A DNA stretch of 64,000 nucleotides from positions 74,924-138,923 of the IMG/VR virus record IMGVR_UViG_3300036772_000425; one strand, 5' to 3'. The translations under genes were made by a program, and so were the position numbers. The notes beneath the pieces were generated by a model. That model searched no databases. It was not told where the DNA came from and was given only the letters and a program-made list of their open reading frames with translations. The DNA is from a virus. Below, piece after piece: positions 10,007 to 64,000 of this stretch; position 1 is the stretch's first letter; the number at the start of each line of letters is the position of its first letter.

Positions 10007-10563
10007 GTCTCCGAACTACCGATGTTCTCCCAGCTGCACAACCCGACAAGTTCATCGCGCCATTCGTCCACCTTCATGTCAGCGAGCGACCCCAACCTGG
10101 CTCGCCAGTTGGCCCGATCCCAACCGAAGGTGTCCCACACGTACGTCTCGAACCCAGTGAGCGGGTTCCCGTTCAGATCGTGCAACCACTCTCCGTGAAC
10201 TCTGTCGTTGAGATGCGCTGGAAGGTACTGAATTTTGCATGTTCCATCGTACAGCGGCCGGGTGCTCAGTTCATCGAGCAGTTCGACGAACGTGAGTTCC
10301 GGATGCACCATCAGATCATCAGCCAGCATGAATTCAGAGAACCCAGACAGGTCATGATCCTGGAAGCTGCCGTAGTACCCCACAACGTAATCGGGCGCCC
10401 GGCACCAAGCGTTCTGTGCCAACCAACCGTTCGTCTGGTCCTCTTGCCAGTCGGCCATCCCAGATTCAGTGAGTTGGTAGAAAGGTTGCAGTAGTTCGGA
10501 GACGCGTGGATACACGTCACGACATCGAACCGGCAACCAACAGACGCCGCCGTCAGCTCCCAT
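9997..10563 (-). CDS. hypothetical protein
   Basis: 188-aa ORF; 10-nt overlap with the downstream ligase gene suggests one operon. Confidence 0.4.
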   Translation of the reverse strand: MGADGGVCWLPVRCRDVYPRVSELLQPFYQLTESGMADWQEDQTNGWLAQNAWCRAPDYVVGYYGSFQDHDLSGFSEFMLADDLMVHPELTFVELLDELSTRPLYDGTCKIQYLPAHLNDRVHGEWLHDLNGNPLTGFETYVWDTFGWDRANWRARLGSLADMKVDEWRDELVGLCSWENIGSSETWT

Positions 10564-27788: not shown

Positions 27789-27822
27789 CCTACCGTGTAC
27801 GGGCCGTGCATTGCACAGCGGT

Positions 27823-34294: not shown

Positions 34295-34305
34295 TGGGTC
34301 CTATC

Positions 34306-34539
34306 CTAACCCGAGCGCGCCGGGTTTTTCACTTCGCACAGCGCTGAGCGCAGGGAGTCAGCCTGGGCGCGGGTGAGCGAGGTCCTGATGGCCTCGCCTT
34401 CATCGTTCATCTGCGTGAATTCTACCTCGCCCGTCAACGAGTTCATGTGCACCTGCAGCGTGGATCCGGCACCGTGCAGGCTCAGCAGCTCGGTCCACGG
34501 GTACCTGTGATGGTCCAGGACGATGATCTCAGCGCTCAT
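34306..34539 (-). CDS. hypothetical protein
   Basis: 77 aa. Confidence 0.3.
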   Translation of the reverse strand: MSAEIIVLDHHRYPWTELLSLHGAGSTLQVHMNSLTGEVEFTQMNDEGEAIRTSLTRAQADSLRSALCEVKNPARSG

Positions 34540-35624: not shown

Positions 35625-35689
35625 ACGGGCGATCCTGCACTTCCTGTGGCACCCGCCAGGATCGGTGACCGATCCTGGCGGGTGCAGTT

Positions 35690-37870: not shown

Positions 37871-38170
37871 CTATTGCGTCGAGCGCCTGCGGGCCTCAAT
37901 GGTCTGGAGGAGTTCTGCGATCCCATGCTGGAAACCGGGATCCTTTGCGATCTCATCGATCTGCTGGTCGGTGAAGCTCCTGTCCATGTCCTCAGTGAGG
38001 GCCTCGACGAACTTTCGCATGACCCTGATGACGTAGTTCCGAGCCGATGAATGGTTCATCCTGAATCCCAGGACTGTCATCACCTCAGCGATCTCACGGT
38101 AGTTATCACCGTCGTCTTCCGCAACGGTTGCGTAACCGCGGTCGATCCGATCACCCTTTCGAAGAGCCAT
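37871..38170 (-). CDS. small HTH protein resembling sigma-70 region 4
   Basis: 99 aa; NYREIAEVMTVLGFRMNHSSARNYVIRVMRKFVEAL. Confidence 0.4.
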   Translation of the reverse strand: MALRKGDRIDRGYATVAEDDGDNYREIAEVMTVLGFRMNHSSARNYVIRVMRKFVEALTEDMDRSFTDQQIDEIAKDPGFQHGIAELLQTIEARRRSTQ

Positions 38171-38574: not shown

Positions 38575-39467
<893 letters not shown>

Positions 39468-39477
<10 letters not shown>

Positions 39478-40602: not shown

Positions 40603-40992
40603 TCAAACTTGTTCATGTTCTTCATCTACCTCAGGTGAAGGCAACAGTTCACTCATGGTTCGACGTTCAGGGATCCCACCCATCTTGATGGGACACAGGC
40701 TCTGGAAGCTGCCCGTTCGATCCTTGGCAATGTTCCAGATGCCGGTAAACGGCTCGAAGTGCCAGATGACGTCAGCCGTGTGGCTGAGCATCGTGGGCAG
40801 ACGAGACAGCTCCACCGTCTCCTTACCGATGTAAACGAGATGGATCATGTCATCCGTGAGGACCATGAAGTACTTCGGCAACGTCAAGGCGTTGAACGTT
40901 TCGAGTAGATCGGATCGTCCTTCCGGCGATGCCTGTTTGATCCGAAAGATCAGGTTGCCCAGGAACTTGTTCTTGGCGCTGGAACCCATCAT
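40603..40992 (-). CDS. hypothetical protein
   Basis: 129 aa. Confidence 0.35.
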   Translation of the reverse strand: MMGSSAKNKFLGNLIFRIKQASPEGRSDLLETFNALTLPKYFMVLTDDMIHLVYIGKETVELSRLPTMLSHTADVIWHFEPFTGIWNIAKDRTGSFQSLCPIKMGGIPERRTMSELLPSPEVDEEHEQV

Positions 40993-41035
40993 GTGCTGGA
41001 TCCTACCATCAGGCAGATGTCGGTTGCACCGCAGG

Positions 41036-44500: not shown

Positions 44501-44505
44501 CGAAG

Positions 44506-44581
44506 CGGGGGAGGATGGGCTTGAACCACCGTCTTCGGACCTATTGCGGTCCGACGCTGAAGTCTACTGAGCTACTCCCCC
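44506..44581 (-). ncRNA. tRNA-like element with 8-nt (or 6-nt) anticodon loop
   Basis: acceptor gggggag/ctccccc; T-arm gatgg-gcttgaa-ccacc; anticodon hairpin cggac-ctattgcg-gtccg. Confidence 0.4.
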
Positions 44582-45525: not shown

Positions 45526-45531
45526 AATGTG

Positions 45532-45602
45532 CTCCCAGAGCTGGCCTTGCACCAGCACCTCCGTGCGTTCTAGCACGGCGCTCTGCCTTGAGCTACCCGG
45601 GA
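45532..45602 (-). ncRNA. tRNA-like element with non-canonical T-loop and 6/8-nt anticodon loop
   Basis: acceptor 7 bp including two G-U; T-arm-like gctgg-ccttgca-ccagc; hairpin ccgtgc-gttcta-gcacgg; D-arm gctc-tgcctt-gagc. Confidence 0.35.
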
Positions 45603-47279: not shown

Positions 47280-47311
47280 GTGTTCATCGTACCATCAAAG
47301 GCTTCGAACTT

Positions 47312-47803
47312 TCACCCGTTGAAGGTTGAGAGGTGCCCAGGCGCTGCATCACGCCAGCGTTCTGCCCGTTTCTGGAGCAGCGCTGCCACCACCTCGTCTG
47401 AGCGCGGGCAACGCCCGACCTTCCGATCGTGCCTGATGCCCTTAGCATTGTTGCACGCTGAACACGCCAGCGCGAGGTTACGCGGATCGTCAGAGCTGCC
47501 GCCGGCGCACAGTGGCCGGATGTGTTCCAGGGTCGCGGTCGTTGAACCATCGAGCATGACGCAAACAGGTGAACTGCAATGGATGCACTTGCCGCGCCAG
47601 TAGGCCTGTTCGACAGCGACGATCCGGAAACTACTGTCTGTCACCACGATCAGTTCGACCAGCTTTGTCCTTGCCTTGCCCCGGGGCCTCGTCGCCTTCA
47701 TCAGGCTCAGCTCCCGATTTCTCCTGCTTTTCTTCATGGTCGTCCGTGTCTGAACCTTCCTCCTCATGATCATCACCACCCGAGCTGGGTTTGGCATCCG
47801 CAC
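47312..47803 (-). CDS. HNH endonuclease (true start probably an internal Met)
   Basis: CIHCSSPV...ATLEHIRPLCAGGSSDDPRNLALACSACNNAKG. Confidence 0.55.
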   Translation of the reverse strand: MRMPNPARVVMIMRRKVQTRTTMKKSRRNRELSLMKATRPRGKARTKLVELIVVTDSSFRIVAVEQAYWRGKCIHCSSPVCVMLDGSTTATLEHIRPLCAGGSSDDPRNLALACSACNNAKGIRHDRKVGRCPRSDEVVAALLQKRAERWRDAAPGHLSTFNG

Positions 47804-53312: not shown

Positions 53313-54258
53313 GCTTGCCCAATCCCAGCACCAGCAGTCCCTCTGCTGCGTATGACTCTGCGTTCAGGTCCGACGACAGCTGCCCACCCGCCATCGCAGC
53401 CTCCAGCTGTTCCTTGAGCTCGCCTAACCAGGGTCCGGGCGCTGCGCCCGAACGGGCCAGGATGATGCCCATGGTGCCCTTCGGCAACCGCGGTAGGTTG
53501 TCAGCGGCGTACAGTTCCCGGACACGAGCCTCCAGCTCATCGCCCCGGCGCATCGCCGCGGCACGCTTCCGTGGGTTCTTGGTGGTCAGGTCGGCACGTG
53601 ACAGAGCCAGCAACCGCTCGAAACCCCGCATCCCGTCCAGGTCGGTGAGCAACCGGCGGACAGCGCTGTCGGTCCATCCGCTGCTGTAGCCCGCCGGGCG
53701 CAGGTGGTTGAGGACGAGCGACCGGACGGTGCGCAGCAAGGCCACATCCTTTCCGAACAGGCCCAACCTGCGCTCGATGGAACCCACCGCCCGCGCACCG
53801 ACCACATCGTGGTTGTGGAAGCTGACACGGCCCTGCCGGTCGACGGCCCGGGTCTGCGCCTTCCCCACGTCGTGCATCAAGGCGGACCAGCGCATCTCCA
53901 CCGTGGCGGGCACCCCGAGGACCACCTTCTTGGTGTGATCCCAGACGTCCTTGTGGAGCGCAGCCTCCGGGTCGTCGCCCAGGTCACGCAGGGCCTGCAG
54001 CTCCGGGATCAGCGCGGCCAACGCGCCCGACCTGAGGAGCAGCTCCAGGCCTGCGTCCGGGAAGGGTCCGGTCAGCAGGGCGTCAAGGATCGCGCGCACC
54101 TGCACGGGGTGACGCCGCCAGGCATTCTGGTAGTCGCCCTGCCCGAAGATGCGGGGAACCTGCACGTCATCTGGGACGCCCTGCTGGGCACCCAGGGCGC
54201 ACAGATCCAGGACCTCGAGGGCGTCCATCAGTCCCTCCTGTCGCCCCGGGGGTCGCAC
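53302..54258 (-). CDS. HD-domain phosphohydrolase (resembles the C-terminal HD domain of bacterial CCA-adding enzymes)
   Basis: 318 aa; LHKDVWDHT...ALMHDVGK...HNHDV. Confidence 0.55.
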   Translation of the reverse strand: MRPPGRQEGLMDALEVLDLCALGAQQGVPDDVQVPRIFGQGDYQNAWRRHPVQVRAILDALLTGPFPDAGLELLLRSGALAALIPELQALRDLGDDPEAALHKDVWDHTKKVVLGVPATVEMRWSALMHDVGKAQTRAVDRQGRVSFHNHDVVGARAVGSIERRLGLFGKDVALLRTVRSLVLNHLRPAGYSSGWTDSAVRRLLTDLDGMRGFERLLALSRADLTTKNPRKRAAAMRRGDELEARVRELYAADNLPRLPKGTMGIILARSGAAPGPWLGELKEQLEAAMAGGQLSSDLNAESYAAEGLLVLGLGKHAG

Positions 54259-54464
54259 TGGCCCTCGGTGCCGAAGTAGTCCTCGTCCAGCAACCGGTCC
54301 AGCATCCGGTCGAACTCTGCGCAGGCCTGCCGGGCACCCTCGTCCTTCTGCACCCTGTCGGACGTACCGTGGTCGAGCACGTGGGCCACGAACAGCGTGG
54401 CGCGCTCGGCCAGGTTCTTGGGCGTGGTGCTCGCGATCTTCTTCTTCATGCTGTTCTCTCCCGT

Positions 54465-54935
54465 TCAGAGCATCGCGATGACGGTGGGCAGGGAATCCGC
54501 CGCGCCGGAGTAGCTCCGGAGTTCCACGGAGGCGCCCGCCCTGATCAGGGCCTCGGCTGCCTGGCGCGCGAACTCGGCAGAGCCGGCCACCATGATGGGG
54601 GTGCCCAGGGGCGACTCCACCGCCTCCTTCGCCTCCTTCAGGCCCAGGCCCGTCAGCTCCCGGATCACCTTGATGACGTTGATCTTGGCCGTGCCGACGG
54701 CCTGCAGCGACACCGCCTGGCGCCCAGCCGGGACCATCAGCAGGGTCGAGGCCCGGCAGAAGCGGTCGAACAGGTCGGACAGGTGTGCCACGGGCACCAC
54801 CTCCGACATCCGGATGCCCCGGGGTTCCTCGTCCGGCGGGAGCTCTGACCCATCCTCGGCGACCTCCCTGACCACGAAGTCGACCCGGATCCTCGAGAGG
54901 GGTTGGCGGCTGCGCATGCTCTCCATGTTAACCAC
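54465..54935 (-). CDS. protein with ribosomal bL12 (L7/L12) C-terminal domain
   Basis: 156 aa; [56 protein letters not shown] parallels the bL12 CTD ([27 protein letters not shown]...). Confidence 0.55.
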   Translation of the reverse strand: [156 protein letters not shown]

Positions 54936-54959
54936 CCTACCACCGGTGCATCCCAGGTT

Positions 54960-55517
54960 TCACAGCTCCACGATCCATTTGCCGCCGCTCCCCGTGGGCA
55001 CAGCCCCCGCTGCACGGAACAGGGCCCGACCACGTTCGCTCCATGGGAAGCACAGGAAGCGCCGGGCGCCGAGCGCCCGGGACACCTCGATCGCCCGGTC
55101 GACCAGGTGCCGGCCCAGGCCGGCGCCGCGGTGGGGGGCAGAGACGTACACAGCGACCTCCATGTCCCTCGGATCCGATCCCGGAACGACCAGGGCCCAG
55201 GCGATGGGTTCCGCCGGCCTGATGACCCACCCGCACGGTGCTGGGCAACCGTCCAGGGCACGTTCCAGGTGCATCCGCATGTCTGACTCCAGCTCACAGG
55301 TCCCGACCGAGCCCGACGGGAGCTCCCCATCGTCGGGCGCGCGGTTGGTCAGGGGCAGCAGGGCATGCAGCTCATCGGGCACCAACGTACCCAACCCGAC
55401 GACGCGGAGGGCGGGACGGGGCGCCCCGATGGCCTCACGTGAACCCAGGCTGACTGTGATGGGGGGAACAACGGCCGCGCGCGGGCGATTGACGGTGGGC
55501 CTCACGGTGGAGATCAT
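54960..55517 (-). CDS. GNAT family N-acetyltransferase
   Basis: Trimmed to ATG 55517 (MISTVRP...); VAVYVSAPHRGAGLGRHLVDRAIEVSRALGARRF matches GNAT motif A. Confidence 0.5.
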   Translation of the reverse strand: MISTVRPTVNRPRAAVVPPITVSLGSREAIGAPRPALRVVGLGTLVPDELHALLPLTNRAPDDGELPSGSVGTCELESDMRMHLERALDGCPAPCGWVIRPAEPIAWALVVPGSDPRDMEVAVYVSAPHRGAGLGRHLVDRAIEVSRALGARRFLCFPWSERGRALFRAAGAVPTGSGGKWIVEL

Positions 55518-56495
55518 GCTTTCCTTTTCATCCCTTTCAGAGCAGGTGACCGGCGGTGCCGACGGTCGGTGGAATACAGCCGGACGGGCCCAGCTGGTCG
55601 TGCACGGCACGCAGGGCGGTGACCAGGAGCTCGCATGCCGCGGCGAGCTCGGGTTCACCTGAGCCCCGGAGCATGTCGGGCAGCCCAGCGAGCGGCAGAT
55701 CCTGCAGGCGGACCCGCAGGCGAAGCCCGGCCAGGTCGGCAAGCGATCGTTGCAGGGCCCGGAGCTCGCGGGGGTCGAGCTCCATCAGCCGCTCCACCGG
55801 GTCCACATGACCGCGGTGCCCTCGGGACCGTGGGAGACGACCAGGCCCAACCGGTGGTGCGGGGGCTGGTGCTTCGCCGAACGGTGCTGGACCAGGGCGC
55901 CCGGTTGCAGGCACGGGAAGCAGGTGACCAGGCAGGAGGCGAAGAACCCTCCTGCCTGGGCATCGTACCGCTTGAGCTCGGTGCCGGCGGTCAACGGTCG
56001 ACCACCACGCGTTCCAGCAGGGCCTGCAGCTCAACGTGGGCCCCGGGGGCCGCCCGGGTCGGGTACACGCTGACGATCCGCTCGCCGGGCAGCAGCGCGG
56101 CGGCGACCGCCATCACGTCGGGCTCACCGTTCGGGTGGGCCGGGACGGCGACCGTCCGGTACGGGCACGGCCGGAAGGTGGCGGACGACCGGCGCAGGCG
56201 ATCCGGGATGCCGGGGACAGGGGGAACGCTCATGTTCAGAGGATCCTCGGGTCAGCACGGTGGACATTGAGCTCACGCAGGCGTGGGCCGATACGCGCGA
56301 GCAAGGCGATCGCCCGGTGTTGACTGTCGGCGCGCCCGTGGTACCCGGCCACGAGAGCCAGGCGGACGACGCGGCACGCGGCCAGGAGGTCAGGGTCGGG
56401 CAGGTCGGCGAGGGAGAGCCTGCTCGCCAGGTCCCAGAACCCGGCGGCGGGCAGCAGGAACAGGGCATCGCCCAGCTGGGCTGCCGCGCTCCGGT

Positions 56496-56831
56496 TCATC
56501 GACCACCGTCGGCTGCATCAGGGAGCGCCCAGCGAACGCACGGGCAGCGCTGTTCGTATTCCTGGCGCCAGCGAGAGCACCACTGCTGCGGGTAGGCCCC
56601 GGCGTTGCCGTAGTTCCCAGCGGTGAGATTGTTGGTGCGGGTCTCGGTGCACGTCAACCCCGATGGGCGTTCGGTGCAGGGACCCCGCTCTGCGCAGGTC
56701 GGAGCAGGCGCCGCGGGAACCGAGGGGGTGGCTGCGGTCGACGGCCCGGTGTCGGCCGGCATGTCGCCGCAGCCGACCATGCACGCCAGGACGATGATGG
56801 TGAGGTGAGCGAGGGTGGTACGACTGTCCAT
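56496..56831 (-). CDS. putative Cys-rich lipoprotein
   Basis: Trimmed to ATG 56831 (MDSRTTLAHLTIIVLACMVGCGD...); very GC-rich region, frame uncertain. Confidence 0.35.
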   Translation of the reverse strand: MDSRTTLAHLTIIVLACMVGCGDMPADTGPSTAATPSVPAAPAPTCAERGPCTERPSGLTCTETRTNNLTAGNYGNAGAYPQQWCSRWRQEYEQRCPCVRWALPDAADGGR

Positions 56832-57156
56832 ACTCAGCAGGGTACCACGGATGGGCCCAGGGTTGCACTGCCCAGGATCCGGAAGGTGCACCGGCGTGCC
56901 TGGTGGCCCAACCTCAGCTGTGTCTTCATGCGGGTACGTATGGTCGCCCGGCGGAAAACAGTGCACCGGCAGCAGGGATCCCGCGCGGGTCCGGAATTTC
57001 ACGCGTGATTTGTGTGCATACCCCAAGCGGGAGGCCGCCCGAGACCTTCGACAAAGGTTGCCAGCGGGCCGGGGCGGCCCCCCACCCCCTAGAAGGGGCC
57101 GTTTAGGGGGCCGTCGATGGGGCCCTGTGAGGGGCCCCGGGGCCGGGGCGGCCCGT

Positions 57157-57453
57157 TCAGTACAGCGGGTACTCCACGATCGCCCAGTACGGGCGGGTGG
57201 ACAGTTCCGTCCCCGACCACTCGCAGGGTTCGCCCCCGTCCTCCTCCATGTGCTCGCCCTCCGGCTCGCCGTCGAAGTGGGCGAGCAGCTCGGCGTCCTT
57301 CCGGACCTTCATCGCCTCCACCGTCGCCCGGTCGAGCGACACCATCGCCACCTCCAGGGTGACCCCGCTGCCCATCGACACGTCGCCCTCCAGCTGGAGG
57401 ACGTAGGCGTACTGGGACCCGTTCTTCTTGGTCGACTTCTTGGTGGTTTCCAT
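57157..57453 (-). CDS. small protein of the motif-preceded gene array (starts METTKK)
   Basis: ATG 57453 abuts conserved upstream motif copy 1. Confidence 0.5.
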   Translation of the reverse strand: METTKKSTKKNGSQYAYVLQLEGDVSMGSGVTLEVAMVSLDRATVEAMKVRKDAELLAHFDGEPEGEHMEEDGGEPCEWSGTELSTRPYWAIVEYPLY

Positions 57454-57495
57454 GGTCCTAGTATATCCTCCGCGCATCCGAGGTTTCACAGTCGA
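57454..57495 (-). promoter_or_regulatory. conserved promoter-like motif, copy 1
   Basis: coding strand CTGTGAAACC-N18-GGATATACTAGGACC then ATG. Confidence 0.5.
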
Positions 57496-57499
57496 ACTC

Positions 57500-57796
57500 T
57501 CAGGCGATGGCGGTCGCGGTGACCCGCAGGCGGGTCGTGCGGCCGACGATCCGCTCGTCGACGGAGATGAAGCAGTGGCAGTCGGGCAGGGCGAAGCTGA
57601 GGTCACCGTTGACGTAGCCCTTCGACGCCAGGAACCGGCCCAGCGCGCTCTCCGGGTCGAAGTACGCGACCAGCTTGGTGTACGGGTCGTCCTTCGGGCC
57701 CGTGGTGGTGGAGGACACGGTGGGGGAGGCCTCCAGCAGGGCCGCGATGCGGCAGCCGAGCATGGGGGAGATTGCGGTGTGCTTGTTGGTTTCCAT
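57500..57796 (-). CDS. small protein of the array (starts METNKH)
   Basis: internal Met 93 of ORF 57500..58072 coincides with the motif; ATG GAA ACC. Confidence 0.5.
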   Translation of the reverse strand: METNKHTAISPMLGCRIAALLEASPTVSSTTTGPKDDPYTKLVAYFDPESALGRFLASKGYVNGDLSFALPDCHCFISVDERIVGRTTRLRVTATAIA

Positions 57797-57838
57797 GGTT
57801 CCAGTATAACCCCGACGGGATCCCGGATTCACCGGGAT
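57797..57838 (-). promoter_or_regulatory. conserved promoter-like motif, copy 2
   Basis: GGGATCCCGGTGAATCCGGGATCCC...GGTTATACTGGAACC then ATG; -35-like element sits inside an inverted repeat. Confidence 0.5.
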
Positions 57839-57855
57839 CCCTGTCGAGGCCGGCG

Positions 57856-58167
57856 TCAGACCGCGTAGCGGGAGTTGAAGTCGTCCAGCAGGCTGCGCTC
57901 GGTGCGGACCATGCCGACCTCCCTGAGGTGCGACAGCGTCCGCGTGATCGACAGCGTCAGGGTCAGCGGAGCGGCGGGCGCGTTGCCGCTCATGAGGGTG
58001 ATGAACTCCATGACCACCTCGTTGCGGGGCGTGATCCCCACGACCCTGAGGGTCAGGCGCTCGAAGGTCCACTCGTCCCCCACGTTGAGGTGTTCCTTGT
58101 CCAGGCGGCGTTGGACGCGCTCGGTGAGGACGGGGGCCGTGCGGTTGCAGCTGCAGTTGGTTTCCAT
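57856..58167 (-). CDS. small protein of the array (starts METNCSCN)
   Basis: ATG 58167 abuts motif copy 3. Confidence 0.5.
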   Translation of the reverse strand: METNCSCNRTAPVLTERVQRRLDKEHLNVGDEWTFERLTLRVVGITPRNEVVMEFITLMSGNAPAAPLTLTLSITRTLSHLREVGMVRTERSLLDDFNSRYAV

Positions 58168-58209
58168 GGTCCTAATCTACCAGGATCGGGACCGTGGATT
58201 CACCGACGA
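58168..58209 (-). promoter_or_regulatory. conserved promoter-like motif, copy 3
   Basis: GGTGAATCCACGGTCCC...GGTAGATTAGGACC then ATG. Confidence 0.5.
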
Positions 58210-58356
58210 TTCAGACAGCGTCCAGGAAGCGGACCGCCGCCCGGTGCACCCGGTAGTCGTGGGGGCGCAGGGCCTCGCCCCTCTCGGAGGCGGAGATGAC
58301 CTGGTCCAGCGCATGGAGGGCGACGTTCCGCAGGAAGGAGATGATGAGGTGTTCCA
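58177..58356 (-). CDS. small protein of the array (59 aa, MEHLIISFLRNV...)
   Basis: ATG 58356 abuts motif copy 4; TAG stop lies inside the next motif; below the ORF-track cutoff. Confidence 0.4.
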   Translation of the reverse strand, partial: WNTSSSPSCGTSPSMRWTRSSPPPRGARPCAPTTTGCTGRRSASWTLSESSVNPRSRSW

Positions 58357-58398
58357 TGGTGTCCAGTCTACCTTCCGCGCATCCGAGGTTTCACAGCG
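58357..58398 (-). promoter_or_regulatory. conserved promoter-like motif, copy 4
   Basis: TGTGAAACC...GGTAGACTGGACACC then ATG. Confidence 0.45.
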
Positions 58399-58592
58399 TT
58401 CCGAGGGCCAGGCTGACGACCCAGAGCCACAGCACCGTCGCCAGCACGGTGGCGAGGGCGGTCAGTTCATCGTGCTCGACCGAGCGGTCGATCCGGACCA
58501 GCGTACCCTTCAGCATGTCCCATCCTACCTTCTGCGTGCCCCCGGATTCACCCTTGAGAATCCGGGAGGGCTGGGAGGTTTAACCCCTCAGA

Positions 58593-58898
58593 TCAGAGCT
58601 CGCCGCACTCGGTGACCGCACCGGAGCCCTGGACCAGCTCGCGGGGAGCGTGGCATCCCCACACCTTCCGCGACGGGCGGGCGGCGGGGGCGACCGGGCG
58701 TTGGCCGACGATGACCATGTTCCCCATGACCTGGACGGGAGCGACCGGCGCCTGGACCGCCGCCGCGACCGGGCGGTGGGTGACGGGCGCCTCGGCTGCC
58801 GCGACCGGGGTGGGTGCGGCGAAGGCGAGGAAGGCGAAGGACGCCGTGGCGATCAGGGAGAGGACGGTGCCGAGAACCTGCTTGGTGGTGGTCTTCAT
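58593..58898 (-). CDS. small secreted protein of the array (signal peptide MKTTTKQVLGTVLSLIATASFAFLAFA)
   Basis: internal Met 118 of ORF 58593..59249 coincides with motif copy 5. Confidence 0.5.
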   Translation of the reverse strand: MKTTTKQVLGTVLSLIATASFAFLAFAAPTPVAAAEAPVTHRPVAAAVQAPVAPVQVMGNMVIVGQRPVAPAARPSRKVWGCHAPRELVQGSGAVTECGEL

Positions 58899-58940
58899 GG
58901 TATCAGTATACCTCCGTTGGGATGGGGTTTTCACTGGGAA
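58899..58940 (-). promoter_or_regulatory. conserved promoter-like motif, copy 5
   Basis: AGTGAAAACC...GGTATACTGATACC then ATG. Confidence 0.45.
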
Positions 58941-58968
58941 ACTTGGGGGCGCTCGGTGCGGACCATGC

Positions 58969-59391
58969 TCACTGCCAGTACTCCCACCCGGTGAGGTCCT
59001 TCGTGGACACCATCCACCCGCCGGGGGTGCTGGGGATGAAGAGGAGCGGGTACACCGTGTCGCCGGGCACGTACTGGGTGGGCCCGTGGGGTGAGACGCA
59101 GCAATCCTCGTTCTCTGCCCACCAACCGATGAGGACGGCGTCCTCAGATCGGGTGTTGAAGATGAGGAACTTGGGTTCGCTGTCATCGAACCAGGTGTCC
59201 TGAGCCTCGTGGACGATCCCACGGAGCAGGAGGTACGGGCACCAGTCACCCTCCTCGTTGACGGTGAATGCGCCGTAGGTGTCCGGGATGACCGGATGGG
59301 CGAAGAGGTGGGTCACCGTGACGGGTCCCGGGTTGAGGGAATCCGGGGTGATGGAAGAGTTGATGAGGGCCTGAGCTGCGGTGGTGTCCAT
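58969..59391 (-). CDS. small protein of the array (starts MDTT)
   Basis: ATG 59391 abuts motif copy 6. Confidence 0.5.
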   Translation of the reverse strand: MDTTAAQALINSSITPDSLNPGPVTVTHLFAHPVIPDTYGAFTVNEEGDWCPYLLLRGIVHEAQDTWFDDSEPKFLIFNTRSEDAVLIGWWAENEDCCVSPHGPTQYVPGDTVYPLLFIPSTPGGWMVSTKDLTGWEYWQ

Positions 59392-59433
59392 GGTCCTAAT
59401 CTACCACGAATGGGATCCCGGATTCACCGGGAT
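59392..59433 (-). promoter_or_regulatory. conserved promoter-like motif, copy 6
   Basis: GGGATCCCGGTGAATCCGGGATCCC...GGTAGATTAGGACC then ATG. Confidence 0.5.
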
Positions 59434-59447
59434 CCCATTGGGAGGTC

Positions 59448-59810
59448 CTAGGCCCGGGCGCACCTACGACCGGCGGGCGTCAGGGAGTACGTCAGGCGAC
59501 CCGTGGAGGTGCGCCCGGTGATCCTCACCAGCCCGTTGACGATGACGGAGTAGCGCGCCTCGTCGTGGAACCCTCGGGGCCCACCGTCGTGCATCCTCCG
59601 GAAGTAGCACCGGTTGGAGTCGCCCGACAGCTCCGGGTTCACCCTCCCCATGATCTCCAACCGGGTGCTCCCGGGGTGGGAGAGGAGGTCCTCACAGATC
59701 GACTTCATCTTGGGGGACCGGTGCTGGAGACCCCTCGGGAGACTCCTCCGGTGCTCGAGCGCGGGGTGGGAGAGGTAATTCGAAGGGGTGATGGGGGTGT
59801 TGGTGTCCAT
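59448..59810 (-). CDS. small protein of the array (starts MDTN)
   Basis: ATG 59810 abuts motif copy 7. Confidence 0.5.
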   Translation of the reverse strand: MDTNTPITPSNYLSHPALEHRRSLPRGLQHRSPKMKSICEDLLSHPGSTRLEIMGRVNPELSGDSNRCYFRRMHDGGPRGFHDEARYSVIVNGLVRITGRTSTGRLTYSLTPAGRRCARA

Positions 59811-59852
59811 GGGTCCAATCTACCTCAGATGGGATCCGGGATTCACTCCTGA
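59811..59852 (-). promoter_or_regulatory. conserved promoter-like motif, copy 7
   Basis: AGTGAATCCCGGATCCC...GGTAGATTGGACCC then ATG. Confidence 0.5.
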
Positions 59853-60070
59853 TCCAGGTCGATCAGCTGCCCAACCACCGTCACCGTGTACTCGACGCGC
59901 AGGTTGGGCGCCGTCGGGTGGTGGTTGAACATGGTGAAGCTGGCGACCTCACCGGTGGGGGTCTGCACCGTCGTCGGTTCATGGTCGCTCGAGTCGGTGT
60001 CGACCGGGATCCGGTGCTGGGAGAACGCGTTGATGATCTGCTGGGCGATCAGGGTGGGCTTGATTTCCAT
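59843..60070 (-). CDS. small protein of the array (starts MEIK)
   Basis: ATG 60070 abuts motif copy 8. Confidence 0.5.
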   Translation of the reverse strand: MEIKPTLIAQQIINAFSQHRIPVDTDSSDHEPTTVQTPTGEVASFTMFNHHPTAPNLRVEYTVTVVGQLIDLDQE

Positions 60071-60112
60071 GGTCCTAGTCTACCACAACCGGGACCATGG
60101 ATTCACCCCGAT
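60071..60112 (-). promoter_or_regulatory. conserved promoter-like motif, copy 8
   Basis: GGTGAATCCATGGTCCCGG...GGTAGACTAGGACC then ATG. Confidence 0.5.
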
Positions 60113-60113
60113 G

Positions 60114-60317
60114 TCAGCGGGGGAGGCTGCGCACCCGCTTCAGGATGGCGGCGATCTCCCCGTACGCCTTGTTCCAGTCCTCGGCGTTGAGGCCCTGATC
60201 GTCCAGCGCGGAGATCACCTGCGTTGCGGCACCCTCCGCGTACTGCAGCTTCTCCTCCACGTCGGCGGCGGCCTCACGGCGTTGCGTCAGCAGGTCGGTC
60301 TTCTTGGTTCCAGGCAT
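60114..60317 (-). CDS. small protein of the array (MPGTKKTDLL...)
   Basis: internal Met 20 coincides with the variant motif GGTACAACCGATCATG. Confidence 0.45.
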   Translation of the reverse strand: MPGTKKTDLLTQRREAAADVEEKLQYAEGAATQVISALDDQGLNAEDWNKAYGEIAAILKRVRSLPR

Positions 60318-60359
60318 GATCGGTTGTACCTCAGATGGGGGTTTGGGTTCACCCGGTGA
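60318..60359 (-). promoter_or_regulatory. conserved promoter-like motif, copy 9 (variant)
   Basis: GGTGAACCC...GGTACAACCGATC then ATG. Confidence 0.4.
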
Positions 60360-60627
60360 CGGGTTGAGCTTCACCGAGCCAGCGCATCTGCAGCGAGAAC
60401 ATCTCCTCGTCGGTCATCTGCTGGTCACCTCCCAAGCACTCCGGGCACGTCCAGAGGCGGAGGTCCAGGCCGTGTTCGCAGCAGGAGCACACCTGGTCGA
60501 ACGGGTCCACGTGGATGTCGGAACCGGAGCCCAGCTCCTTCTCCGACATGGCGAAGAGGCCGAAGAGCTCACGCTCCTCGTCGTTGGACAGGACGGTGAG
60601 CTTGCAGTTGGGGCACTTGGTGTCCAT
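60349..60627 (-). CDS. small Zn-ribbon-like protein of the array (CPNC...CPEC)
   Basis: ATG 60627 abuts motif copy 10. Confidence 0.5.
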   Translation of the reverse strand: MDTKCPNCKLTVLSNDEERELFGLFAMSEKELGSGSDIHVDPFDQVCSCCEHGLDLRLWTCPECLGGDQQMTDEEMFSLQMRWLGEAQPVTG

Positions 60628-60669
60628 GGTCCTAGTCTACCTCGGTTGCAGAACGGGTTTCACCCTCGA
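60628..60669 (-). promoter_or_regulatory. conserved promoter-like motif, copy 10
   Basis: GGTGAAACCC...GGTAGACTAGGACC then ATG. Confidence 0.5.
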
Positions 60670-60692
60670 GCGGGCGCTCGGCACGCGTGTCC

Positions 60693-60887
60693 CTAGGGCT
60701 GTGCCATCATCTGGAGGCACTCCGTCCAGGCGTGTCTGTACGCCCGAACCTCGGACGTGCTGGGTGCATGGCCCAGGGCACGGGTTGCGGCCTCCCAATC
60801 GGGCGTCTCCGAATCGTTCCCGGCTCCGATGGACGCATCGTGCGCCGTCCGTTCCAGGAGACGCTTCACTGCGGGGGTGATTTCCAT
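60693..60887 (-). CDS. small protein of the array (starts MEIT)
   Basis: ATG 60887 abuts motif copy 11. Confidence 0.5.
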   Translation of the reverse strand: MEITPAVKRLLERTAHDASIGAGNDSETPDWEAATRALGHAPSTSEVRAYRHAWTECLQMMAQP

Positions 60888-60929
60888 GGGACCAGTCTAC
60901 CCCTTTCGAACCCGATCATTCACCGGTGC
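60888..60929 (-). promoter_or_regulatory. conserved promoter-like motif, copy 11
   Basis: GGTGAATGATCGGG...GGTAGACTGGTCCC then ATG. Confidence 0.45.
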
Positions 60930-61067
60930 CAGCCTGACGATCTCGCCCCGCTGCGTCCGGACCATCGCCACCGTCAGCTCGTAGGTCAGGTGGGACCTGA
61001 CCACGATGCGCTCCTGGGTGCCCGGGGAGCGGGTGAAGATGACCTCGAAGGGTTGGAAGGTGTTCAT
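60897..61067 (-). CDS. small protein of the array (MNTFQPFEV...)
   Basis: internal Met 32 coincides with a variant motif. Confidence 0.45.
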   Translation of the reverse strand: MNTFQPFEVIFTRSPGTQERIVVRSHLTYELTVAMVRTQRGEIVRLAPVNDRVRKG

Positions 61068-61109
61068 GATCCTGTTGTACCCTGGATGATGGGTTGGGTT
61101 CACCCCTGC
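61068..61109 (-). promoter_or_regulatory. conserved promoter-like motif, copy 12 (variant)
   Basis: GGTGAACCCAACCC...GGTACAACAGGATC then ATG. Confidence 0.4.
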
Positions 61110-61513
61110 GGATGGACGCCGTCGTTGAAGCTGTGGAACATCACGCCGCCGATCACCCACCGCGGGTTCGCAGGAGCGTACGCTCGCCAGTCGCTGCGGG
61201 TCCGGCGGGTGAACTCGGTCCGTGCATGGAAGGTGACGATGTCGTCACGGTCCGCAGCGATGGTGGCGATCAGGTCCTCCGTGGTGACCGAGCCCATGTC
61301 CAGCAGCACCTTCAGGTGCCCCGCCGGGCACCAGTACCCGTCCGCGGTCAGGACCTGGACGGTGCCCACCTCGTCCACCAGTGCATCCACCACCGTGGAG
61401 GAGCGCCCGGCGGTCGGACCGGTGACCTGCCTGACGCGCTTGCCGATGAGCTGTTCTGACTCCTCGGAGATCATGACCTCGATGCCGCCGACGACCTTGG
61501 TGTTCGTGTTCAT
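61100..61513 (-). CDS. small protein of the array (starts MNTNTK)
   Basis: ATG 61513 abuts motif copy 13. Confidence 0.5.
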   Translation of the reverse strand: MNTNTKVVGGIEVMISEESEQLIGKRVRQVTGPTAGRSSTVVDALVDEVGTVQVLTADGYWCPAGHLKVLLDMGSVTTEDLIATIAADRDDIVTFHARTEFTRRTRSDWRAYAPANPRWVIGGVMFHSFNDGVHPQG

Positions 61514-61555
61514 GGTCCTACTCTACCCAGGATGGGATCAGGGTTTCACGGTGTG
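61514..61555 (-). promoter_or_regulatory. conserved promoter-like motif, copy 13
   Basis: GTGAAACCCTGATCCC...GGTAGAGTAGGACC then ATG. Confidence 0.45.
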
Positions 61556-61813
61556 ATTGCCACCGCACACGTAGCACATGGAACCGGGTCCGGCAGGGAG
61601 GCGGCACGAGCACTCGCGTTCCTGGAAACCGGGAGCCACGTACCTGAAGGGCATGCTGAAGTGGGCGGACCGCAGCTCCACGCCCACCCGGTCTGGGGCA
61701 CCCTCCATGGGCTCCACCGTGATCTCGATGCTGTGGATGTCCGATCCGGGGTACCGGACCTTGTGCTCTTCGATGATCGCCCGGGCCCGTTCCAGCATGG
61801 TGTCGGTGTGCAT
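61538..61813 (-). CDS. small Cys-containing protein of the array
   Basis: ATG 61813 abuts motif copy 14. Confidence 0.5.
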   Translation of the reverse strand: MHTDTMLERARAIIEEHKVRYPGSDIHSIEITVEPMEGAPDRVGVELRSAHFSMPFRYVAPGFQERECSCRLPAGPGSMCYVCGGNHTVKP

Positions 61814-61855
61814 GGTACCAGTCTACCCCGGTTGCGGTTCAGATTTCACCGCGTC
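61814..61855 (-). promoter_or_regulatory. conserved promoter-like motif, copy 14
   Basis: GGTGAAATCTGAACC...GGTAGACTGGTACC then ATG. Confidence 0.45.
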
Positions 61856-62301
61856 CTGAGGAGCGCCTGCGCGGCCGTCACCCGGCGGCACAGGTCCTGC
61901 TCCCGACCCGTGAAGTGGTGCCGGGTGGAGATCCGCAGCTCCTTCCCGCAGTGCGGGCAGGAACGCGTGTACGGCGAGGCGCTGGAGAGCTCGATCACCT
62001 CCAGCGCCAGGAGGTCTCCCAGGTTCGGGTTGAAGGTCCGGTAGGCTCCGGGCGTCCCGGCTGCGTTGTCACGTTCGTTGACGATCAGGGTGAAGACCAC
62101 CTCACCCCGGGAGGTGAACCACAGCGACGACAGCGCGCCGGTGAAGTGGTGCCGGCTGATCCCCTCCGCCTCCGCGCGCTTCGCCTGCTGCTGGGCCAAC
62201 GGGGTCGCCGGGCGTCCGGCCAGGTAGGAGACGAAGAGCTCTGAGCCCGGGGGGACGTGCCGCAGCTTCAGGAAGGCATCGACGGGGCTGATGGTGTCCA
62301 T
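61846..62301 (-). CDS. small protein of the array with internal RHHFTG duplication
   Basis: ATG 62301 abuts motif copy 15. Confidence 0.5.
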   Translation of the reverse strand: MDTISPVDAFLKLRHVPPGSELFVSYLAGRPATPLAQQQAKRAEAEGISRHHFTGALSSLWFTSRGEVVFTLIVNERDNAAGTPGAYRTFNPNLGDLLALEVIELSSASPYTRSCPHCGKELRISTRHHFTGREQDLCRRVTAAQALLRTR

Positions 62302-62343
62302 GGGTCCAATCTACCTCCTTTGGGCCCTGCGCTTCACCCTAGA
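62302..62343 (-). promoter_or_regulatory. conserved promoter-like motif, copy 15
   Basis: GGTGAAGCGCAGGGCCC...GGTAGATTGGACCC then ATG. Confidence 0.45.
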
Positions 62344-62623
62344 ACCGGAGCCTGCCGCTGGCGGGCGGCCACGACGCGAACTGTCCCTCTTCCAACCAGC
62401 GATCCACCGCCTCCGGCGTCAGGCGACGGGCCGTGTCGCGCCAGTGCGCCAGCAGGACGAAGTCCACGACCTGGTCGGCCGTCTTCGGTGCGGGGCTCCA
62501 GGGACGGACGGTGGCACGGATGGCGTACGATCCGTCGACGGCAGGGTCAGACTCCAGCAGCAGCTCCTGCACCTGCAACCCAGTGTACAGTTCCACGCCC
62601 AGCTTGATGGTGTCCTTGATCAT
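62339..62623 (-). CDS. small protein of the array (starts MIKDT)
   Basis: ATG 62623 abuts the variant motif GGTACAACAGATCATG. Confidence 0.5.
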   Translation of the reverse strand: MIKDTIKLGVELYTGLQVQELLLESDPAVDGSYAIRATVRPWSPAPKTADQVVDFVLLAHWRDTARRLTPEAVDRWLEEGQFASWPPASGRLRF

Positions 62624-62665
62624 GATCTGTTGTACCTCAGATGGGGGTAGGGTTTCACTCAGGCC
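62624..62665 (-). promoter_or_regulatory. conserved promoter-like motif, copy 16 (variant)
   Basis: AGTGAAACCCTACCCCC...GGTACAACAGATC then ATG. Confidence 0.4.
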
Positions 62666-62825
62666 TGATGTCAGCGAGCGCGATGCCGATCACCTCATCG
62701 CAGACACCGCTGCACCGGAGCAGTTCCTTGATCTCAGCTGCCGAACTGTCGGCGTCTGCGTGCTTGGCGATCAGGTCGTATGCCCTGGAGAGCTCCGCGG
62801 CGAGCTCGACACGCGTGCTAGACAT
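62655..62825 (-). CDS. possible translationally coupled small ORF (56 aa)
   Basis: ATG overlaps the TAG stop of the upstream gene (ATGTCTAG); no motif of its own. Confidence 0.25.
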   Translation of the reverse strand: MSSTRVELAAELSRAYDLIAKHADADSSAAEIKELLRCSGVCDEVIGIALADIRPE

Positions 62826-63144
62826 CGAGGTACACCACCAGGTTCTGCTTGCACAGCTTCCGGGACGAGAAGATGATGTACCCGTCCTGGGCCTCCACCC
62901 CCTTCGACGCCTGGAGCTCCCGCAGCACCTTGGTCACCTCCACGTCCGAGACGTCACGGTCCTCGTAGGCGTAGCCACGTTCCTTGTCGGCCGCCGCGCG
63001 CTTGTCAGCGCGGACGAAGTACCGGCCCTTGCACCCGCACATGCAGGCGTGCTTCCCACGGTACGCCTTCAGGATCTGCTCCGGCCTGATGGCCTGGAGA
63101 ACGCTGTGGGGGACGGGACCTGCCGGGATGGTGTTGGTTTCCAT
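62818..63144 (-). CDS. small Cys-rich protein of the array (starts METNTIPAG)
   Basis: ATG 63144 abuts motif copy 17. Confidence 0.5.
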   Translation of the reverse strand: METNTIPAGPVPHSVLQAIRPEQILKAYRGKHACMCGCKGRYFVRADKRAAADKERGYAYEDRDVSDVEVTKVLRELQASKGVEAQDGYIIFSSRKLCKQNLVVYLDV

Positions 63145-63186
63145 GGTTCTAGTCTACACCTTGGGTTCCTTGGGTTTCACCGCGAT
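63145..63186 (-). promoter_or_regulatory. conserved promoter-like motif, copy 17
   Basis: GGTGAAACCCAAGG...GGTGTAGACTAGAACC then ATG. Confidence 0.45.
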
Positions 63187-63405
63187 CGGGACCATGTGGA
63201 GGCCACGCTTGATCGCCTCCGCTTCTACGTGCGGGAGCCAACGGGTGACGTTGCGGAAGAAGATGTCGCGCTGGGGCACGCCGTCGATGTCCGGACACTC
63301 AGTCCAGATCTCATCGAACTGCCCCTCCCACGCCATCTTCAGGCCGGTGTGGCCCAGCGTCACGGACTCCCTCAGGGTCTCATCATCCAGGTCGGAGGTT
63401 GCCAT
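63154..63405 (-). CDS. small protein of the array (starts MATSDLDDE)
   Basis: ATG 63405 abuts motif copy 18. Confidence 0.5.
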   Translation of the reverse strand: MATSDLDDETLRESVTLGHTGLKMAWEGQFDEIWTECPDIDGVPQRDIFFRNVTRWLPHVEAEAIKRGLHMVPIAVKPKEPKV

Positions 63406-63447
63406 GAGTTCCAGGGTACCTCCAATGCCCTCACAGCTTCACCCACG
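63406..63447 (-). promoter_or_regulatory. conserved promoter-like motif, copy 18
   Basis: GGTGAAGCTGTGAGG...GGAGGTACCCTGGAACTC then ATG. Confidence 0.4.
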
Positions 63448-63476
63448 TTTATTCGATGGGCCGGTGTCCGTGGCTC

Positions 63477-63995
63477 CTACCCCTCGACGACCTCGATTTC
63501 AAAGTCCATCAGCATCAGCCGGCGCCCCGATGCATCCTGCACGTAGTAGCAGACGACGGGGCAGTCAGCGCCCGGGTTCGTTGGGACGTAGGCGATGGGG
63601 GTGCCGCCCAGCGCGTTCACCTTCACGTCGCACCCGTCCTCGACCAGGTTGCCCACCACGATGCCCAGGAACCCCACGTCCTCCGGGCCCGGGTGCAGCT
63701 CGCGGCCGCAGAACCCGTTGGGGTCGACGTTGGTGCACCGGACGACGGTCCCGTACCGGTGAACCCGGGTGATCTCCAGGCCGCAGCCCCGCGCATGCTT
63801 GCTGTCCAGGTACGCCTCGCCGTACTCCTTGACGGGGTTGACGAAGCGCCTGCTGGTGGCGTCGAACTGGGGCTCGGTGATGCACACCCCGTCGAACATG
63901 AAACCCTCCCCGTCCTCGGAGGCCTCGCAGTCGCAGTCACTGACCCGGCGGGCATCGCAGAAGAAGCACCGCTTCTGGTTGGTGTTGGTTTCCAT
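63477..63995 (-). CDS. Cys-rich protein of the array (starts METNTNQKRCFFCD)
   Basis: ATG 63995 followed by CCATGG at the window edge, so the motif is truncated. Confidence 0.5.
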   Translation of the reverse strand: METNTNQKRCFFCDARRVSDCDCEASEDGEGFMFDGVCITEPQFDATSRRFVNPVKEYGEAYLDSKHARGCGLEITRVHRYGTVVRCTNVDPNGFCGRELHPGPEDVGFLGIVVGNLVEDGCDVKVNALGGTPIAYVPTNPGADCPVVCYYVQDASGRRLMLMDFEIEVVEG

Positions 63996-64000
63996 GGTCA

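Follow-up and report, generated by a model that had tools for sequence, protein, structure and literature searches.

Clusters of small phage genes in which each, or nearly each, gene has a strong promoter of its own are well known from the host-takeover module of SPO1 and from the early promoters of T4, where the host polymerase acts first and a phage sigma factor follows later. Here we analyze an array of small genes, each standing directly behind a copy of one two-box motif, in a 64,000-nucleotide (nt) stretch of viral DNA (positions 74,924 to 138,923 of IMG/VR record IMGVR_UViG_3300036772_000425; hereafter the window, numbered from its first letter). The array makes up a hypervariable block of small orphan genes, and the phage that carries it is very large and uncultivated. 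Each motif copy is quite probably a transcription promoter and the array a series of single-gene transcription units, whose messenger RNAs (mRNAs) would be leaderless.

Several described systems share part of this design. Early transcription of SPO1 is carried out by the host sigma A (PMC13401047). The array resembles the SPO1 and T4 modules in its many small genes of no assigned function, nearly every one with a putative strong promoter, but the SPO1 and T4 promoters are canonical for the host sigma factor and their mRNAs are leadered. The hyperplastic regions of T4-type phages also contain cassettes made of an early promoter and a stem-loop (PeSLs; PMC2839356, PMC4122927). Like PeSLs, the motif is a conserved and apparently strong promoter between the small orphan genes of a hypervariable region, and its cassette-like copies share sequence outside the functional boxes. 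Unlike PeSLs, which have a working terminator hairpin and leadered mRNAs, most copies here have no hairpin and the predicted mRNA is leaderless; no stem-loop terminator accompanies each cassette, no canonical terminators lie between the array genes, and no recombination was seen.

Genes whose start codon adjoins a -10 hexamer are found in Deinococcus-Thermus (PMC12340547), Mycobacterium tuberculosis (PMC3898074), and Deinococcus deserti (PMC4007540), and that this placement yields leaderless mRNA has been established experimentally in Deinococcus-Thermus (PMC12340547) and mycobacteria (PMC3898074). The array genes share with them a TANNNT hexamer a few bases before the start, transcription predicted to begin at the start codon, and the lack of a Shine-Dalgarno (SD) sequence. 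Bacterial leaderless genes, however, are mostly without a recognizable -35 element, whereas here a strong, invariant, and non-canonical GTGMAA box stands at a fixed distance and the whole element is repeated in near-identical form, one copy per gene, in a phage. The start-associated sequences (SAS/ESAS) of Cluster K mycobacteriophages comprise a 13-mer, GGGATAGGAGCCC, that lies 3-7 nt before the start and has the SD core inside it (PMC3203893). Both elements are asymmetric, keep one orientation a few bases before the ATG of unrelated non-structural genes, and are absent from host genomes (SAS) or from the species genomes searched (here). In contrast to SAS, the motif is a 36-nt two-box element, is free of an SD sequence, and also occurs far upstream of leadered genes. 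A link to such actinophage sequences, raised by the initial annotation of this DNA, found little support: the 13-mer has four matches with at most two mismatches against 1.9 expected, none of them at an array start, and its SD core is missing here (PMC3203893).

Thermus phage P23-45 offers a further likeness, namely, a phage promoter class with an extended -10 element in a host lineage rich in leaderless mRNAs. Its middle and late promoters are said, in work attributed to Berdygulova et al. 2011, to be leaderless. These extended -10 promoters (PMC7403470) have no -35 element, and gp39 and gp76 remodel the host sigma factor, whereas here a -35-like box is conserved. A survey of huge phages does not mention such a motif (PMC7162821). 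Per-gene phage promoter arrays (T4 PeSLs, SPO1) and leaderless mRNAs are thus already known separately. What is new is the combination of a near-identical promoter, a non-canonical -35 box, predicted leaderless starts, and about a hundred uses; the conservation of the motif across a clade of uncultivated giant phages; and its presence alongside a sigma factor that has no -35-reading helix.

A TWO-BOX MOTIF ABUTS THE START CODONS OF THE ARRAY

The minus strand of 57454-63442 holds 19 complete copies of GTGAA-N17-GG-TAnnnT-N5-7-ATG. All genes in 57157-64000 lie on this strand and 19 of them begin directly behind a copy, which upholds both the array of about 19 genes and the one promoter copy per gene that the initial annotation had claimed; the chance expectation is about 0.01. 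The ATG-proximal 17-mer GGTAGAYTAGGACCATG is matched 13 times with at most three mismatches (0.18 expected), and the full two-box pattern GTGAA-N17-GGTAGAYTRGNMCCATG eight times exactly (0.00 expected). When GTGNA-N19-TANNNT-N5-7-ATG is required to open an open reading frame (ORF) of at least 40 amino acids (aa), 22 matches fall on the minus strand and none on the plus strand, against 0.01 in shuffled sequences.

The geometry of the motif is rigid. From GTGAA to TA there are 17 nt plus GG in each copy, a length that is constant across some 100 copies from this phage and its relatives, and the 18-nt spacing between GTGAAN and TANNNT, present in all copies, falls within the 16-19 nt range of sigma-70-type promoters. 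The gap between the hexamer and the ATG is 6 nt in most array copies and 5 or 7 nt in a few; over the larger sets it is 6 nt in 23 of 31 copies of this phage and 63 of 69 of its relatives (86/100 overall). The -35/-10-like arrangement noticed earlier is thereby confirmed, with a fixed spacer and a TANNNT that ends at -7, and so is its placement against the ATG, with a gap of 5-7 nt and no SD sequence, from which leaderless mRNAs had been proposed.

Within the -10 hexamer the TA is invariant, and the last base is T in 25 of this phage's 31 copies and C in the TACAAC variants, which serve as the -10-like hexamer in three array copies and form a sub-family of their own (family D6). The relatives' copies have C at position -1 in 61 of 69 cases, with the A of the ATG at +1; a pyrimidine/purine pair at -1/+1 is usual at a transcription start. 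A G at -14 is found in 27/31 copies of this phage and 65/69 of the relatives', and a T at -15, which would complete the extended -10 element TGn, in only about one-third. The -35 consensus, GTG[A/C/T]A[A/T/C], agrees with TTGACA at three to four of six positions and is not a TTGACA-like box; a simple sigma-70 promoter scan detects only two of the 19 array copies. In an unbiased set of 91 sites, for which TANNNT-N6-ATG and an ORF were the only criteria, GTGNA stands at the exact position in 74 and TTGACA in none. Conservation reaches about 12 nt into the coding sequence, that is, through the first four codons, and five genes do begin ATG GAA ACC (MET) as previously noticed, with their ATGs at 57453, 57796, 58167, 63144, and 63995.

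The array does not stop at 64000, as had been implied. L001, a Logan contig from run SRR11832861 (same sample), is identical to the window over the shared 10.5 kb and adds 10 kb past window position 64000. On it another 5 kb or so of array follows, in which about nine additional copies lie, reaching approximately L001 4749, with a divergent junction at L001 4507-4836. The array thus totals about 28 copies over 12 kb. Its units within the window, each a motif copy and the gene behind it, are as follows.

57157..57489 (-), unit 1: putative promoter GTGAAA-N16-GA-TATACT-N6 (57454-57489) and 98-aa gene, ATG 57453
57500..57832 (-), unit 2: GTGAAT..TATACT and 98-aa gene, ATG 57796; the -35 box is the loop of palindrome 57817-57841
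57856..58203 (-), unit 3: GTGAAT..GGTAGATT and 103-aa gene, ATG 58167
58211..58394 (-), unit 4: GTGAAA..GGTAGACT, 7-nt gap, 48-aa gene, ATG 58357; spacer near-identical to that of unit 1
58391..58551 (-), unit 5: GTGAAT..GGTAGGAT, 5-nt gap, gene for a 41-aa hydrophobic product, ATG 58516
58593..58934 (-), unit 6: GTGAAA..GGTATACT and 101-aa gene, ATG 58898
58969..59427 (-), unit 7: GTGAAT..GGTAGATT and 140-aa gene, ATG 59391; second perfect palindrome, 59412-59436
59448..59846 (-), unit 8: GTGAAT..GGTAGATT and 120-aa gene, ATG 59810
59843..60106 (-), unit 9: GTGAAT..GGTAGACT and 75-aa gene, ATG 60070
60114..60352 (-), unit 10: variant GTGAAC..GGTACAAC, 5-nt gap, 67-aa gene, ATG 60317; family D6
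60349..60663 (-), unit 11: GTGAAA..GGTAGACT and gene for a 92-aa Cys-rich product, ATG 60627
60693..60923 (-), unit 12: GTGAAT..GGTAGACT and 64-aa gene, ATG 60887; the -10 TAG is the stop of the upstream gene
60897..61103 (-), unit 13: variant GTGAAC..GGTACAAC and 56-aa gene, ATG 61067
61100..61549 (-), unit 14: GTGAAA..GGTAGAGT and 137-aa gene, ATG 61513
61538..61849 (-), unit 15: GTGAAA..GGTAGACT and 91-aa gene, ATG 61813
61846..62337 (-), unit 16: GTGAAG..GGTAGATT and 151-aa gene, ATG 62301; homologues in L007 and L093
62339..62658 (-), unit 17: variant GTGAAA..GGTACAAC, 5-nt gap, 94-aa gene, ATG 62623
62655..62825 (-): 56-aa gene without a motif copy, overlapping its upstream neighbor by 8 nt, to which it is probably translationally coupled
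62818..63180 (-), unit 18: GTGAAA..TGTAGACT and 108-aa gene, ATG 63144; the -10 TAG is the stop of the upstream gene
63154..63442 (-), unit 19: GTGAAG..GGTACCCT, 7-nt gap, 83-aa gene, ATG 63405
63477..64000 (-), unit 20: 172-aa gene (63477-63995), ATG 63995, start ATGGAAACC; its putative promoter is immediately outside the window (L001 9967-10006) and reads GTGAAA..CTTACAAC

THE MOTIF AS A PROBABLE PROMOTER FOR PREDICTED LEADERLESS AND LEADERED GENES

What the motif does can be read from the two settings in which it is found. Of the 108 strict two-box matches that this phage and its relatives contain, 89 are separated from an ATG by 5-7 nt and have no SD sequence; another 16 have a start codon 8-95 nt downstream, and three lack one. 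In about nine of the 16, whose leaders measure 17-50 nt, an AGGAGG-like SD sequence precedes the start. Abutting copies carry TAGACTAGGACC at -5 to -12 and no AGGAG, and their -10 hexamer stands 5-7 nt before the start, inside the 5-8 nt expected of leaderless genes, while an SD sequence such as AGGAGG or GGAAGG precedes the genes that have a leader or lack a copy. Each arrangement is kept at its own gene: a ligase gene has the leaderless one in four phages, and a KaiC/RecA-like ATPase gene (Pfam PF06745) has the putative promoter, a leader of about 35 nt, and an SD sequence in three. This ATPase gene lies by the array junction and is 62-63% identical in two relatives (L006, L007).

L001 2399-3257 (-), L006 8290-9135, and L007 11536-12373: KaiC/RecA-like ATPase gene by the array junction

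The 5′ ends of the genes look suited to leaderless translation. Over the first 36 nt the folding energy is -3.6 kcal/mol, compared with -9.5 in internal windows (p = 1e-13), and codons 2-5 are A- and C-rich and G-poor.

These observations suggest the following mechanism. The -35-like GTGMAA, the fixed 18-nt spacer, the G at -14 and -13, and the TAGNNT -10 hexamer would together form a promoter, at which an RNA polymerase with a primary-type sigma factor would begin its transcript 7 nt past the hexamer, at the A of the start codon ATG. The resulting mRNA would have neither leader nor SD sequence and would be translated by ribosomes that recognize a 5′-end AUG. Such a leaderless route would serve solely the first gene of a transcript. 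Because translation of an SD-free gene would have to begin at the 5′ end of a transcript made for it, every small gene would need a separate start site, and hence the layout of one promoter per gene.

Could the motif instead act on RNA, either as a translation-initiation element in the manner of SAS or as a processing site at which a polycistronic transcript is cut before each AUG? [quoted passage not shown] That reading is nevertheless highly improbable. The rigid 18-nt two-box structure, the invariant TA...T, and the C(-1)/A(+1) pair are the geometry of a promoter, and the motif also stands 17-50 nt ahead of genes that have their own SD sequence. No conserved RNA hairpin was found, fold z-scores are unremarkable in 23 of 28 copies, the motif has no match in Rfam, and the start-associated 13-mer is not enriched. 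The GAGG/GGAGG also weighs against leaderless promoters as the full account of the array, since it could be a weak, distant SD sequence used on read-through transcripts. What is observed directly is the motif with its statistics and geometry, the division between leaderless and leadered forms, and the conservation in related phages; the start site is inferred from the geometry of the boxes, as are, on other grounds, the timing of expression, the reader, and the role of the genes. By analogy with T4 and SPO1, the array genes are most likely early or host-takeover genes.

The repeat might also have derived from a coding or mobile-element fragment, an origin that the initial annotation had named as one that would overturn its proposal. 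The sequences point elsewhere: the genes are unrelated, and the motif also appears to drive leadered genes with SD sequences. An all-against-all BLASTP comparison of the array proteins yields no significant paralogues and rules out a duplicated-gene origin. Since the genes are mutually unrelated, the repeat is a non-coding signal and not a duplicated gene fragment.

WHICH FACTOR READS THE MOTIF

Two proteins encoded within the window bear on the reader of the motif.

38575..39477 (-): 300-aa RpoD-like sigma factor that has regions 2, 3, and 4.1 but is missing the region 4.2 recognition helix
37871..38170 (-): 99-aa all-helical protein, encoded near the sigma gene in every relative examined

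The sigma factor had been put forward as the candidate reader, a role that we consider unlikely. The RpoD C-terminal model is matched only up to position 195 of 238, and this protein and all of its close orthologues (L002, L008-L014) end in ...LRLRFGLVED..YPITEEE..MEGRGLT and the stop codon, stopping immediately short of the region 4.2 helix (TRERIRQIE...), which is kept in ordinary RpoD-like phage sigma factors such as that of L021. A conserved sigma clade without the -35-reading helix is unusual. Lacking that helix, the factor would be unable to read a -35 box in the usual way. Its own operon, moreover, stands behind motif copies (41029 and 40652), and no canonical sigma-70 promoters above chance were found around it, in 34-50 kb, so something else must fire it first. 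For these reasons the host RNA polymerase holoenzyme is the reader we favor, at about an even chance, with about half that for the phage sigma factor and the remainder for some other reader. On the simplest reading the truncated sigma factor would serve another, probably late, promoter class; the late genes within reach have no intergenic regions.

The -10 part of the motif (G at -14, TAGNNT) is typical of primary sigma factors and the -35 part is not, and it is here that a host reader meets its main difficulties. The -35 box is GTGMAA in all copies and never TTGACA, an invariance that would be odd if an ordinary host primary sigma factor read it. The same box is found in relatives ranging from 45-48% to 65% GC, and its persistence across this range fits a reader carried by the phage. 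The strict motif is, furthermore, absent from 185,579 bacterial and archaeal species genomes. These three facts, together with the rigidly fixed spacer, also speak for a private promoter code read by phage factors, namely, the truncated sigma factor and perhaps a phage protein that reads GTGMAA, in which case the array genes would be of a middle class, switched on after the sigma factor is made. Motif and truncated sigma factor do co-occur on a single contig, of which L002 has the sigma factor at 65% identity and L006 a 15-copy array, and the sigma neighborhoods of close relatives contain the motif, whereas 45 loci with canonical full-length sigma factors (240 kb) contain none. Shared ancestry alone could account for such co-occurrence, however, and the missing 4.2 helix in the sigma factor and its close orthologues, as well as a sigma operon that itself follows this motif and shows no other promoter, are hard to accommodate. 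Known phage sigma factors that lack region 4, T4 gp55 among them, act at promoters devoid of a -35 element (see also PMC7824862). With these points on both sides, we regard the private code as doubtful, at roughly the level of the phage sigma factor acting as reader.

A further version, less probable still, is a code of the clade's own in which a phage factor replaces region 4.2. The candidate would be the 99-aa protein, giving a two-piece sigma factor that would launch dozens of leaderless single-gene transcripts. Of its 273 metagenomic homologues, those listed or aligned are 62-86% identical; the stretch MNHSSARNYV.R.M.KF is invariant, and the protein has no explanatory match in Pfam, PHROG, PDB, or by fold. 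A comparison meant to show whether it could be the missing region 4.2 lent the idea no support: its structure is modeled confidently, but has no structural or profile similarity to sigma region 4. At T4 middle promoters an activator box replaces the -35 element, and a phage activator and an anti-sigma protein re-target region 4 of the host sigma factor. By analogy, it is possible that the GTGMAA box is read in this manner.

PALINDROMES AND POSSIBLE CASSETTE BEHAVIOR OF THE REPEATS

Exactly two perfect 25-nt palindromes, GGGATCCCGGTGAATCCGGGATCCC, occur at 57817-57841 and 59412-59436, both centered on the -35 box, and no other lies within three mismatches. Their hairpins are very stable (z-scores -3.8 and -5.9). 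The initial annotation had seen in them a plausible operator; the perfect palindrome does exist twice, but it has little support as a general operator, being present in just 2 of about 28 copies. That the GGGATCCCGG...CCGGGATCCC palindrome around the -35 box is the operator for a repressor of the array is, accordingly, very unlikely: for all the perfection and stability of the two examples, the palindrome is absent from the relatives' copies, and a duplicated cassette or the 3′ hairpin of an upstream transcript would explain it equally well. The hairpin was likewise discarded as a general feature of the array, given that it is unusual in only 3-5 of 28 copies.

The palindromes also enter into another view, compatible with promoter function, in which the repeats are portable regulatory cassettes and recombination between copies shuffles, gains, and loses orphan genes. 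This is a tentative possibility that we place below an even chance. Sub-families of the motif share sequence far past the functional boxes: the spacers of units 1 and 4 are near-identical, the 25-nt palindrome of unit 2 recurs unchanged in unit 7, and a 38-nt stretch shared by units 10 and 17 has 89% identity. Gene content is hypervariable between conserved flanks (ATPase, ligase, sigma factor), and one array gene is found in an unrelated phage behind an SD sequence. In addition, each of the three reading frames meets a stop codon within the consensus, namely, the TGA of GTGAA, the TAG of TAGACT, and the TAG of CTAGG, and the upstream gene terminates on the -35 TGA or the -10 TAG in 10 of 27 cases (57454-63442; L001 4749-16548). 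On the other hand, we found no near-identical pair of genomes differing by one cassette and saw no recombination event, the PeSL stem-loop half is missing from most copies, and the likeness of the spacers could reflect recent duplication alone.

THE ARRAY GENES

The small ORFs have a strong coding signal, with a GC content at third codon positions (GC3) of 0.72-0.96 against 0.38-0.57 at second positions (GC2). None of their products significantly matches a family of known function in Pfam or PHROG, and the one array protein searched against 5.8 billion proteins, that of 172 aa, matched only itself. About four array or junction genes have homologues in the arrays of relatives, and the flanking ATPase, ligase, and sigma factor are conserved. 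A single metagenome scan for a near-identical array gave only an unrelated contig of 45% GC (L093), which at 9990-10321 encodes a homologue (41% identity) of the unit 16 gene (61846-62301). There the gene has a GGAGG and a TTG start and no promoter motif; it travels, in this case, without the promoter signal.

The GC content is about 0.70 at 54000-58000, against 0.55-0.62 over most of the window, and about 0.65 in the array itself. The high-GC segment is possibly more recently acquired DNA.

COPIES OUTSIDE THE ARRAY

The initial annotation had suggested looking for the motif elsewhere, and eight weaker copies do stand ahead of other genes in the window (27816, 28098, 34332, 40652, 41029, 47315, 54963, and 56868).

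56832..56868 (-): weak copy, GTGCAA..GGTACCCT, ahead of a 111-aa ORF
54927..54963 (-): GTGAAA..GGTAGGGT, ahead of a gene with a ribosomal L7/L12 C-terminal domain (54465-54926)
47280..47315 (-): GTGAAA..GGTACGAT, ahead of a 248-aa gene that heads the block into the tRNA cluster
40993..41029 (-): GTGCAA..GGTAGGAT, at the head of the sigma-containing operon
40617..40652 (-): weak copy, GTGAAC..GGTAGATG, within the sigma-containing operon
34295..34332 (-): copy ahead of a 449-aa ligase-like gene, kept at the orthologue in L002, L005, and L011
27780..28098 (-): two copies, GTGCAA at 27816 and 28098, ahead of a VWA/metallopeptidase gene and a 79-aa ORF

Because weaker copies precede several genes outside the array, the motif is a general promoter class of the long minus-strand block that is densest in the array.

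The gene at 54465-54926 (-) encodes a 153-aa protein in which Pfam recognizes the L7/L12 C-terminal domain at E = 2e-17; a promoter motif of the leaderless type precedes it, and a homologue is found in L004. Huge phages are known to carry L7/L12-type genes (PMC7162821).

RELATIVES AND DISTRIBUTION

A scan of IMG/VR with the two-box pattern returned loci on contigs of 4-369 kb, some of them longer than 300 kb; a 19-nt exact core, too strict a pattern, had no match in the viral-contig scan. The larger loci are arrays of small genes behind this signal, whose first box is GTGAA, GTGCA, or GTGTA, and the relatives together hold 69 copies in about 68 kb. L002 is syntenic with window 32.9-40.1 kb (ligase 66%, sigma factor 65% identity) and L004 with 48.9-54.9 kb; in L006, with its 15-copy array, and in L007 the ATPase adjoins the array at 62-63% identity. 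Motif copies are also found in more distant relatives, binned into three metagenome-assembled genomes (MAGs).

The source of the window appears to be a jumbo phage, because an identical copy of the 99-aa protein of 37871-38170 is encoded on a 340,433-bp Joint Genome Institute (JGI) contig and the window contains 56 tRNA genes, in two minus-strand clusters within 10567-46022. No cultured relative was found: neither the array DNA, at near and distant sensitivity, nor an 856-aa tail-like protein had a match in 50,697 phage records, in which the sigma factor and VWA proteins have distant relatives only (at most 43% and 26% identity, respectively). The three MAGs with homologues of the 99-aa protein (L090, L091, L092) are labeled Paceibacterota or Bdellovibrionota. 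Their members are most likely mis-binned phage contigs, so these labels are not readable as the host. No WhiB-like protein is encoded in the window, and our analysis gave no support for an actinobacterial host.

OTHER FEATURES OF THE WINDOW

Beside the tRNA clusters lie a T4 Rnl1-type RNA ligase gene and a second, weaker RNA-ligase-like gene (7117-8382 and 9305-10006, minus strand), a placement that suggests a tRNA-repair function. Two tRNA calls have four-base anticodons (44505-44581, caat; 45531-45602, agaa) and could be frameshift-suppressor-like tRNAs or prediction artefacts. At 35649-35685, in the interval that follows an AAA_5 gene, 17 bp of perfect stem closed by a 3-nt loop (GCACCCGCCAGGATCGG-TGA-CCGATCCTGGCGGGTGC) separate it from its neighbor and could be a terminator or a protein-binding site. 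The 856-aa ORF at 20-2590 is the C-terminal part of a 1874-aa protein (L088 61-10001, upstream of the window), and a 1422-aa protein is encoded ahead of it across hardly any intergenic space (L088); both are presumably giant structural or tail proteins.

IMPLICATIONS

The motif provides a testable promoter definition, GTGMAA-N16-GG-TAGNNT-N6-ATG, for widespread, uncultivated, very large phages. It raises the question of which factor serves a -35 box that never looks TTGACA-like in phages whose own sigma factor has no -35 helix. As compact parts of about 36 nt, the copies are candidates for use in leaderless expression. For annotation, it pins about a hundred small genes to their true start codons, and the proposed leaderless route would offer a simple reason for a layout of one promoter per gene. 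Finally, the motif delimits a hypervariable block of orphan genes in these phages, which is where host-takeover and anti-defense functions would be expected to reside.

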